DNA of 64,000 nt, taken from NCBI GenBank assembly GCA_036271335.1, contig DATBAW010000161.1, positions 1,255-65,254 on the forward strand. Direction: 5' to 3'. Below the pieces are notes generated by a model that did not search any database, was not told where the DNA came from, and worked only from the letters and a program-made list of their open reading frames with translations. The stretch is from Thermoanaerobaculia bacterium (GTDB lineage: Bacteria > Acidobacteriota > Thermoanaerobaculia > Multivoradales > UBA5704). Every line of letters starts with the position of its first letter. Positions within the stretch are counted from its first letter, which is position 1. The translations under genes and the position numbers were made by a program. Positions 59,001-62,000 of this stretch are shown piece after piece.

Positions 59001-62000
59001 GGTGTGGAGGCGGCTGCGCCCGGCGGAGGTGAGCCCGACGGCGACGTCGTCCTGGCCGCTCAGGCGGGAGAGGAGCGTCGCGAAGCCCGCCAGCAGAGCG
59101 GTGAACGCGGTGATCCCCTCGCCCGCCCCCAACCCGCGGAGCCGCGCCGCCAGATCGGCGGGGAAGCTCACCACCCGGCTGGAGCCGCGGTCGCCGGTGC
59201 GCGCCGAGCGCGGCCGGTCGGCGGGAAGCTCGAGCACCGGCACCCCGGTGAGCTGCCCCCGCCAGTAGACGAGCTGGGCGTCGAGGGCGCCGCCGGAGAG
59301 GGCCTGCCGCTGCTGCAACGCCCAGTCGGCGTAGCGCACGGGGAGCGCCGGCAGCGACGGCGACCGGCCGGCGGCGAAGTCGGCGTAGAGGCTCGCCAGC
59401 TCGCGGAAGAGGACCGCCGTCGACCAGCCGTCAGTGGCGATGTGGTGGAAGGTCGACACCAGGACCCGCCGGTCGGTTTCGAGGTCGAGGAGGAGGAAGC
59501 GGACGACCGGCCCGCGCGCGAGGTCGAACGACCGCGCGGCGTCGGCGCTCAAGGCCCGCCACAGGGCGCGCTCCCGCGCCGGCGCGGGGAGCGCCGTCAG
59601 GTCCACCCCCGTGAAGGCGAGCCCCACGGACTCCGGCGGCAGCACGACCTGCACGGGCTCCCCCTCCGTCCAGGAGTAGACCGTGCGCAGCGGCTCGTGG
59701 CGGCTGACGATCTCCGCCAGCGCGCGCCGCAGGGGCCCCGTCTCCAGCGGGCCGGTGATCCGCGCCGCGATCGGCACGTTGTACTTCGGGCTTCCGGGCT
59801 CGATGCGGTCGAGCAGCCAGAGGCGCAACTGGGCGAACGAGAGCGGGCTGGCGCTCCCGGCCGGCAGGGGGAGCTCCGCCTCCCGCTCCCCCCCCTCGCC
59901 GCTTTCCAGCGCTGCGGCGATCTGCCGGGCCAGGGCCGCCACCGTCGGCGACTCGAACAGGCTGTTGAGGCCGAGCTCCACCCCGGTCTCCTCGGCGATC
60001 CGCATGGTCACCCGGTAGGCCAGCAGGGAATGGCCGCCGAGGACGAAGAAGTCGTCCTCGGGACCCACGGCCTCAATGTCCAGCACCTCCCGCCAGATCG
60101 CCGCCAGCCGCTCCTCCAGGGAGTTGCGCGGCAGCTCGCCGGGACGACCGGAACGGCGGGGGGTCGGGCGGGGGGGGACCAGAGAGGGGACCGGACGGGC
60201 CGGGCGAGGGGCCACCGGCCCCAACCGCTCCAGCTCCAAGGCGGCCGTGGCGGCCTCCGGATGGCCGGCCGCCAGGCGCGCCGCCAGACCGGCCACCGTC
60301 GACGCCTCGAACAGGTCGGTCATCGACGCCACGATGCCCAGCAGCTCCTCGATCCGCGCCAGGATGCGGATGGCCAGCAGCGAATGGCCGCCGAGCGTGA
60401 AAAAGTCGTCGTCCGGACCCACGACCCTGACCTCCAGCACCTCGCGCCAGATCGCCGCCAGCCGCTCCTCCAGCGGCGCCAGCGGCCGCTCCGCGGCAGG
60501 GTCGGAGCGCCGGGAGTCCGGGTGGAGGTCCGCCGGCTCCGCGGCCAGCTCAGCGGCCGCGGCGGCATCCAGGCCGCCGAGAGCCATGCGCCCGGCCAGC
60601 CCGGCCACGGTCGGCGCCTCGAACAGGTCAGTCATCGAGATCTCGAGGCCGAGTTGCTCCTCGGCCTGCGCCAGCACGCGGATGGCGAGCAGCGAGTGGC
60701 CGCCGAGGGCGAAGAAGTCGTCGTGGACGCCGATCCGCGGCTGCTCCAGCACCTCGCACCAGATCGCCGCCAGCCGCTCCTCCAGCAGCGTGCGGGGTGC
60801 GGCGAAGCGTTCGGCGCCGGCCTCGAGCGGATCGCGCGCGGCGAGCGCCCGACGGTCGACCTTGCCGTTGGCGGTCAGCGGCAGCTCGGCGAGGGCGACC
60901 AGGCGGGAGGGGAGCATGTGCTCGGGCAGGAGCGAGCGCAGGCGCTCGTCGAGGTCCTCCGGCAGCTCCTCCCCCCGCGGCACGACATAGGCGGTGAGCG
61001 CCTTGCCGCCGGCCTCCTCGCGCGCCACCACCGCCGCCTCCGCCACTCCTGGCAGCCGCAGCAGGGCCGCCTCGACCTCGCCGAGCTCGATGCGGAAGCC
61101 GCGAATCTTCACCTGCTGGTCCCGGCGGCCGAGGAATTCGAGGGCGCCGTCCGACCGCCAGCGGGCGAGGTCGCCGGTGCGGTAGAGCCGCGCTCCCCCC
61201 TCGCGGGAGAACGGGTCGGGCACGAAGCGCTCGGCGGTCAGCTCCGGCCGGTCGTGGTAGCCGCGGGCCAGGCCGTCGCCGCCGGCGTACAGCTCGCCGG
61301 GCGCCCCCGCCGGCACCAGGCGCAGGTCGCCGTCCAGCAGATGGACCGTGGTGTTGGCGATCGGGCGGCCGATCGGGATCGGATCGTCCACCGCCGCCTC
61401 GTCCCGCATCGGGTGGCAGGCGGTGAAGGTGGTGTTCTCGGTCGGTCCGTAGCCGTCGATCAGGGTGAGCCCGGGGAAGGTGGCGAGGGCCCGCCGGACG
61501 TGCGCCGCCGACAGCACGTCGCCCCCCGCCAGAAGCTGCGAGACGCCGCGCAGGACCTCGGGGCGGCTCTCGATCAGGGAGTGGAAGAGGCCGGCGGTGA
61601 GCCAGAGCGTCGTCACCCCTTCGCCGGCCACGGCCGGACCGAGCTCATCGATCATAGGCGCGCGGCCGGGGAGGAGGGCCAGGCGGCCGCCGTTGAGCAG
61701 CGGCCCCCAGATCTCGAAAGTGGCGGCGTCGAAGGCGGCGGGGGCGAGCTGGAGAAAGACCTCGTCCGGGCCGAAGCGGGCGTAGCCGGCGCCGCGGACC
61801 AGCCGCACCACGGCGCGGTGGGTCACCTCGACCCCCTTGGGGCGGCCGGTGGATCCGGAGGTGTACATCGTATAGGCCAGGCTCTCGGGCCCCACCGGGA
61901 CCGCCGGCTGGGGCGCGTCGTCCTCCGCCGTCCGGTCGACCAGCTCGCCATTGGCGTCGACCAGGATCTCGACGATGCCGAACGGCAGCGTCAGGGAGTC

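Follow-up and report, generated by a model that had tools for sequence, protein, structure and literature searches.

A stretch of 64,000 nucleotides from a Thermoanaerobaculia bacterium (contig DATBAW010000161.1; hereafter the window) encodes a nonribosomal peptide synthetase (NRPS) in which one module carries three consecutive carrier (T) domains, T1a, T1b and T1c, behind a single adenylation (A) domain. All three carriers are intact, and they fall into two types, as the last of them (T1c, designated T′) belongs to a separate group that is found at the same junction in related loci with either two or three carriers. The array is real and inherited, and it is probably useful. The reading that we favour, to which we give about an even chance, is that the array provides several tethering sites served by one A domain, thereby raising throughput at this module, with T′ possibly specialised. 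Here, we will describe the array, its relatives and its history, followed by the biosynthetic cluster in which it resides and the explanations that may account for it.

Three carriers in one module

The module lies in a single open reading frame (ORF; 50088..63992, minus strand) that fills the right-hand 14 kb of the window and is still open at the window end. A phmmer search with the protein's own condensation (C), A and T domains resolves the order T / C-A-T-T-T / C-A-T / C-A-T / C-A-T, and the Pfam tally for the same ORF is four C domains, four A domains and seven PP-binding stretches. An initial annotation, made from the letters of the DNA, had placed the array in the first complete module of this synthetase, which holds within the window and not for the gene, as the N-terminus is cut off. 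The features of the module and its borders are as follows:

63759..63956, minus strand: T0, the carrier of the preceding module, cut by the window end (phmmer 61.8 bits; Ser codon 63867-63869)
62370..63707, minus strand: C1, the condensation domain of the triple-carrier module (motif HHIVADG)
60909..62321, minus strand: A1, the adenylation domain (code DAFWLGGTFK, Val type)
60591..60782, minus strand: T1a, the first carrier (Ser codon 60693-60695; PF00550 72.1 bits, E 4.7e-20)
60471..60590, minus strand: linker 1, 40 aa, Ala-rich (12 Ala, 5 Pro), predicted to be disordered (predicted local distance difference test, pLDDT, below 50 over most of it)
60276..60470, minus strand: T1b, the second carrier (Ser codon 60381-60383; PF00550 66.3 bits, E 2.8e-18)
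60117..60275, minus strand: linker 2, 53 aa (12 Pro, 8 Arg, 8 Ala), predicted to be disordered
59913..60116, minus strand: T1c (T′), the terminal carrier (Ser codon 60027-60029; PF00550 61.5 bits, E 9.2e-17)
58512..59858, minus strand: C2, the downstream condensation domain (motif HHIATDG)

The triple-carrier module has the elements of a canonical C-A-T module: HHxxxDG in its C domain, a readable 10-residue A code with Lys517, and a carrier. Its code reads as Val-type, as the initial annotation had it; this and the other codes given below were read by alignment to a GrsA-PheA fragment, and the code positions depend on that reference. The three independent PF00550 matches that had been expected from a scan of this region were obtained. 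Three stretches match within 59802-60905 (E 7.9e-55), and each carrier scanned singly reaches the score listed above, against a Pfam gathering cut-off of 20.8 bits, while covering positions 1-65 (T1a), 1-67 (T1b) and 1-66 (T1c) of the 67 in the model. The carriers occupy aa 1073-1136, 1177-1241 and 1295-1362 of the translation, with nothing else matching in the 40 aa and 53 aa spacers. The conserved Ser motif is present in all three (DDFFVLGGHS in T1c), and the GGHS serines fall at aa 1102, 1206 and 1324, so the Ser codons and the spacings of 104 and 118 aa reported initially are exact. The same is true of a hand count of 49 shared core positions out of 67 for T1a and T1b; T1c shares fewer, as had been noted (39/67 with T1a and 41/67 with T1b), and the linker in front of it is indeed rich in Pro and Arg. 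T1c bears the signature SLLAYRVTMRIAEETG, with an aromatic residue at Ser+4, and helix II of T1a reads SLLAIRVLAQ. An AlphaFold2 prediction, built on a 5-row alignment, folds each carrier into a four-helix bundle of its own (block-mean pLDDT mostly 78-94), with low-confidence linkers in between (pLDDT below 50 for model residues 201-226 in linker 2) and no fixed arrangement of the bundles (predicted template modelling score 0.39).

The copies have diverged considerably. T1a and T1b are 78% identical in DNA and 69% identical in protein, and T1c is 64-68% identical to these two in DNA and 53-57% in protein, which is not above its similarity to other carriers of the cluster. Together with the Tandem Repeats Finder result, in which no long-period array was found, this divergence (64-78% DNA identity across the copies) excludes an assembly stutter, in line with the initial annotation. 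Two related contigs from other assemblies, L083 and L082, also have three carriers. A further candidate explanation, a special (dehydrating or interface) C domain downstream of the array, was rejected as well: the top Protein Data Bank (PDB) matches of C2 are Txo1, Txo2 and TycC (223-307 bits), and the dehydrating AmbE C domain (CmodAA) reaches just 93 bits. By these matches, C2 looks like an ordinary peptide-bond-forming C domain.

A family of two-type carrier arrays

Among 185,579 species-representative genomes there is no close orthologue, and the best matches are single-carrier junctions of about 50% identity from Thermoanaerobaculia, Acidobacteriota, Myxococcota and Actinomycetota. Relatives were retrieved in protein and metagenome searches with a query that contained T′ and the start of the C2 domain, giving 11 related sequences, window included, with tandem carriers at the same junction: three with T-T-T′ and eight with T-T′. 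Besides the window, three carriers are found in L083 (ENA contig_60023), where the high-scoring segment pairs above 58% identity are 59-93% identical to the window NRPS and collinear with it, and in L082 (ENA contig_54850), which is mostly 55-63% identical over collinear segments, with its second A domain at only 43%. In both contigs, many frameshifts split the NRPS into short called genes, a common trait of long-read assemblies left uncorrected; automated annotation of these contigs would therefore fail to reveal the domain architecture. Two carriers are found in P0001 and P0002, which are fragments from Thermoanaerobaculia metagenome-assembled genomes (MAGs) with the order A-T-T-C, and in the six JGI contigs L089-L093 and L109, which have T-T doublets at the same junction.

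At the DNA level, L082, L083 and the six JGI contigs are collinear with the window, in that the tandem carriers are followed by a variable module and then by a Pro-type module (DVQFMAH..). Where the loci of the relatives reach that far, a DLYNxAFVWK-type module comes after the Pro-type module, and relatives with a visible 5′ end start their assembly line with a fatty acyl-AMP ligase and an acyl carrier protein (FAAL-ACP), so the T-T′ clusters probably make lipopeptides. The hosts of this family are uncultured soil bacteria, probably of the Acidobacteriota class Thermoanaerobaculia. The A domain that precedes the tandem has a Val-type code in the window, L089, L090 and L092 and an Ala-type code in L109; it reads DAVWIGALFK in L091 and DVFANGLVYK (not assignable) in L093. 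This variation indicates that the tandem tracks the junction and not the amino acid.

T′ differs from other carriers at a position that is otherwise strongly restricted. Across the 556 non-redundant carriers in all sequence that was fetched, Ser+4 is T, V, I, A, M or L in 95%, and an aromatic residue or His occurs in only nine, eight of which are T′ carriers of this T-T′ family. The strict T′ signature is present in five loci among the 270 carriers from metagenome loci, always in tandem and never in a lone carrier. Given its divergent helix II, T′ and the carriers before it are probably not equivalent.

In a neighbour-joining tree of the carriers, two clades stand apart, one of T′ and one of first-T carriers. 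The T′ clade holds T1c, the third carriers of L083 and L082, and the last carriers of P0001, P0002 and L089-L093; except for L109, every relative has a T1c orthologue as its last carrier. T1a and T1b cluster with the first two carriers of L083 (which are 88% identical to each other in DNA), pointing to a duplication in a common ancestor or to homogenisation by gene conversion. The middle carrier of L082 belongs to neither clade and is unrelated to T1b, from which it follows that three copies arose a second time independently. On this tree, then, the array was built in more than one step, starting from an old T-T′ pair with a later duplication of the upstream T in the window lineage, and three copies arose at least twice. 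The initial description of an evolved triplication therefore stands insofar as these are three diverged, genuine carriers, and falls short in that the event was not a simple one: T1c belongs to an older orthologue group and T1a and T1b form a younger pair.

Carrier cores are kept between the window and L083 and the linkers drift, with indels (linker 1, for example, has diverged from its L083 counterpart and differs by an indel). The ratio of non-synonymous to synonymous substitution rates (dN/dS) between these two sequences is 0.65 for T1a, 0.48 for T1b and 0.27 for T1c, all below 1 with T′ the most constrained, although these values are weak measures, as each domain offers 75 codons, the genome is 75% GC and the L083 contig has frameshift errors. 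Two of the doublets have a different make-up. In L093 (9716-10213), the Val module is absent and the first carrier groups with T0 of the window, which indicates a direct fusion of T0 to T′ in this locus. In L109 (9752-10216), the Ala module is apparently duplicated; the A domain before the tandem and the one preceding it both read Ala. T′ of L109 has been homogenised with its neighbour and no longer has the aromatic residue at Ser+4.

The initial annotation had called such a triplet rare, and our survey agrees. The approximately 310 carriers in 80 species-representative genome loci include one independent doublet (in two Microbulbifer species) and no triplet, and the six doublets seen among 270 carriers from 80 metagenome loci are all of the T-T′ family, with no triplet outside it; doublets make up about 1% of carrier positions in the sampled NRPS loci. 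The Microbulbifer doublet (L019, ~17046-17480; L021, ~16592-17030) is of the GGDSI type and unrelated, its second carrier begins just 72 aa after the first, and a C domain follows. In the open-access literature searched, no carrier triplet in an NRPS module is described, and doublets are described for thalassospiramide, koranimine and fungal iterative synthetases. Myxoprincomide and similar myxobacterial lines were considered as possible precedents, with no usable result from the literature. Tandem carrier domains as a kind are already known, and what is new is a pair of two carrier types that is conserved across relatives and varies in copy number.

The biosynthetic cluster

Downstream of the NRPS gene, on the same strand, the cluster continues with a polyketide synthase (PKS) module (ketosynthase, acyltransferase, ketoreductase and carrier; KS-AT-KR-T), a free-standing C protein and three more NRPS genes, the last of which encodes a protein ending in a thioesterase-like region with a GWSMGG motif. 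The NRPS genes are followed by an M13 peptidase gene, a CmlA-family hydroxylase gene and an M28 peptidase gene, with gaps of 36 and 13 nt between the ORFs. The assembly line comprises at least 14 modules. Val-type codes occur in the four modules labelled A1, B1, B2 and C2 (here a module, not the C domain described above), and the other A domains have two Thr-type codes, one Pro-type, one Gly-like, one Leu-like and several that are not assignable. Only module A1 has extra carriers. The window derives from a soil-type metagenome of JGI, and the nearest proteins to those of the window come from Thermoanaerobaculia (Acidobacteriota) MAGs.

The hydroxylase is a candidate trans-acting partner of the array:

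6406..8073, minus strand: CmlA-family non-haem diiron hydroxylase gene (CmlA_N 2e-97)

Its presence in the same gene block, as initially annotated, is borne out by the CmlA_N match and by the shared operon with the M13 and M28 genes. The protein has a metallo-beta-lactamase fold and keeps the motif HNHQDH, and it matches the diiron monooxygenase of PDB entry 8a90 at 516 bits and CmlA (4jo0) at 439 bits. The gene lies 52 kb from the carrier triplet. A database search returned 7481 matches at E <= 1e-30, of which the best 120 have identities of 66-99%, some of them from MAGs with the labels Thermoanaerobaculia, Deltaproteobacteria and Chthonomonadaceae. The genomic contexts of the homologues (L084-L088, L169-L172) are varied, with NRPS genes, PhyH or amine-oxidase genes, or no NRPS in view.

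Several other features of the cluster deserve mention. At 45383-53600, the A4 module, with the code DLYNFAFVWK (residue not assignable), feeds KS-AT-KR-T, an arrangement that suggests a gamma-amino-beta-hydroxy (statine-like) unit. Directly after the PKS gene comes the free-standing C-domain protein (43902-45380, minus strand). Comparison with 43765-43905 and 35987-36127 shows paralogy between its N-terminus, which comprises a docking-like helix and the beginning of the C domain, and that of NRPS_B, and its C domain forms one subgroup with those of NRPS_B and NRPS_C, in which HHxxxD[W/Y] replaces HHxxxDG. Two C domains, each on its own protein, thus come after the PKS carrier. Three metallopeptidase genes flank the cluster (M49, 27-1373; M28, 4125-6392; M13, 8110 to about 10180), and L093 likewise has an M28 homologue, 46% identical, upstream of its related NRPS. 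An ORF of 626 aa (1418-3298, plus strand) with no Pfam match lies between the M49 and M28 genes.

Possible roles of the array and comparison with known systems

How might a module profit from three carriers? All three are intact and presumably phosphopantetheinylated, and they would hang as beads on flexible Ala/Pro-rich linkers, such that the single A1 domain could load any of them. Several copies of the tethered residue or chain would then be on offer, which may raise throughput where the assembly line is slow, and T′ may be tuned for the hand-off to C2 or for a trans-acting partner. This multiple-tethering reading draws on the conservation of the array, its two independent expansions, its beads-on-a-string layout and what has been published on tandem carriers. 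In thalassospiramide synthetase, the tandem T gives a higher yield with unchanged products (bioRxiv 10.1101/560987); productivity of polyunsaturated fatty acid (PUFA) synthases climbs with ACP number (PMC5067506); and in KorC, Val is loaded onto each of the two tandem T domains (PMC9640594). Furthermore, ACP5a and ACP5b of the virginiamycin PKS differ in residues recognised by trans-acting enzymes and were proposed to act in series (PMC10006238).

A number of points weigh against multiple tethering. The dN/dS values of T1a and T1b are only moderately below 1, and the upstream copies are possibly under relaxed constraint. The modification and loading of every carrier are predictions from sequence, and a simple parallel model would be incomplete if T′ is truly specialised. 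The statement that T′ always stands behind another T applies to loci retrieved with the T′-C2 query and is not an unbiased census. Moreover, we know of no catalyst that passes a chain between NRPS carriers. In a more elaborate and rather improbable scheme, T′ would be a new carrier subtype (aromatic residue or His at Ser+4, motif R-V-x-M-R-I-A-E-E) that works only as second in a pair. The carriers of one NRPS module would here be used in series, the upstream ones for loading and condensation and T′ as a way-station for a trans enzyme (e.g. the diiron hydroxylase) or as sole donor to C2, with upstream copy number tuned by selection.

The initial annotation had suggested that the extra carriers may serve a modification in trans by the hydroxylase, a role that we consider unlikely and that our results leave unsupported. 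The array would present Val-S-T to the CmlA-family hydroxylase, and a slow beta-hydroxylation would then not stall the line, as for the CurA ACP triplet and beta-branching arrays. A genuine CmlA-family gene does reside in the same operon, and L109 pairs an Ala-type A domain (Ala has no useful beta-C-H) with a degenerate T′ that is homogenised and has lost its aromatic Ser+4. The family acts on carrier-bound aminoacyl groups (PMC8252469), the best structural relative of the hydroxylase is the non-haem diiron monooxygenase 8a90 rather than CmlA, and the divergent recognition helix of T′ could be read by a trans enzyme, by analogy with virginiamycin (PMC10006238). However, the hydroxylase could equally well target any of the four Val-type modules or the Leu-type module, of which a single one has extra carriers, and the tandem is kept where the loaded residue differs (L091, L093, L109). 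When five homologue contexts were inspected, L084, L087 and L170 adjoined NRPS genes in which all visible carriers are single, and L086 and L169 had no NRPS gene in the sequence fetched; the contig of the closest homologue (85%) has none on its 8.2 kb. No CmlA-like gene was found within 10 kb of T-T′ in six relatives, a weak negative because the window places it 52 kb from the triplet (with an expected distance of about 50 kb, a 10-kb range is uninformative), nor in the 4 kb of L082 upstream sequence, and none of the best 120 homologues lies on a contig that matches a T-T′ relative in length. To our knowledge, the characterised partners of the family (CmlP, FrsA/D, HynA6 and HynB7) are all single-carrier. 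The hypeptin constructs assayed with CmlA-family enzymes are also drawn as single-carrier modules (PMC8252469).

The array might also be an evolutionary scar, with T-T′ left by insertion, deletion or swap of a module at a carrier-carrier breakpoint and the extra carriers as tolerated passengers. Module gain or loss exactly at this junction is what L093 displays, where T0 is fused to T′ without the Val module, a whole Ala module is duplicated in L109, and dN/dS is higher for T1a and T1b than for T′. We nevertheless find passengers quite unlikely, as the Ser motif is kept in all fully read carriers of the T-T′ family (21 at the DNA level and four in protein fragments), and all 21 of the former match at least 45 of 75 carrier hidden Markov model positions, down to about 55% aa identity. 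In addition, cores are conserved while linkers drift, copy number went from two to three twice, and the strict T′ signature is never seen in a lone carrier (270 carriers). Programmed iteration is a very remote prospect: each carrier would hold one Val as a waiting position, the module would add two or three Val, and copy number would set product length. Iterative fungal NRPSs do have twin T domains (PMC10510592, PMC8162485) and copy number in the T-T′ family is two or three, but removing one tandem T in thalassospiramide synthetase left the product set unchanged (bioRxiv 10.1101/560987), C1 and C2 look ordinary, and no sequence feature indicates iteration.

Tandem carriers are a recognised route to flux or to staged trans-acting chemistry in polyketide and PUFA synthases, and few doublets have been studied in bacterial NRPSs. 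The T-T′ family is a natural series with two or three copies at one junction, one copy being of a distinct type, and lends itself to the questions of parallel versus serial carrier use and of the helix II residues that set partner choice. It also bears on NRPS engineering, in terms of exchange-unit boundary placement and titre improvement, and leaves the general picture of NRPS logic unchanged.

Like the CmlA/CmlP, FrsH and HynC systems, the window encodes a member with CmlA_N, a metallo-beta-lactamase fold and HxHxDH; as far as we know, the partner modules of this family are single-T, and the triple-carrier module of the window is one of several candidate targets. Members of the family hydroxylate aminoacyl-S-T intermediates (PMC8252469). 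Adjacent T domains within one NRPS module are also shared with the fungal beauvericin, enniatin and SidD synthetases (PMC10510592, PMC8162485). The fungal twins reside in a terminal, iterative module as waiting positions for oligomerisation, whereas the array described here is part of an internal module in a linear line of at least 14 modules.

The PKS and PUFA arrays that were compared (the CurA and JamE ACP triplets, mupirocin MmpA, virginiamycin ACP5a/5b and the ACP repeats of PUFA synthases) carry acyl chains and are usually tied to beta-branching or halogenation cassettes, whereas the carriers of the window are putative peptidyl carriers between ordinary-looking C domains. Copies in PUFA and CurA arrays are typically near-identical, unlike those of the window (69% for T1a and T1b; 53-57% to T1c). 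What they have in common is the beads-on-a-string layout with flexible Ala/Pro-rich linkers (PMC3585217). In these arrays, output depends on copy number (PMC5067506) and some of them contain non-equivalent copies, which trans enzymes discriminate through surface residues (PMC10006238).

There is also a likeness to module 4 of thalassospiramide TtcB (T4a-T4b) and to koranimine KorC (T-T), where carriers follow one another without an intervening catalytic domain. These two systems have doublets, with a high similarity between the copies described for thalassospiramide; collapsing that pair to one lowers yield and leaves product identity the same (bioRxiv 10.1101/560987). The array of the window differs from both in having three copies of two types (53-69% identity), in being conserved across a family, and in ending with a copy whose helix II is unusual.

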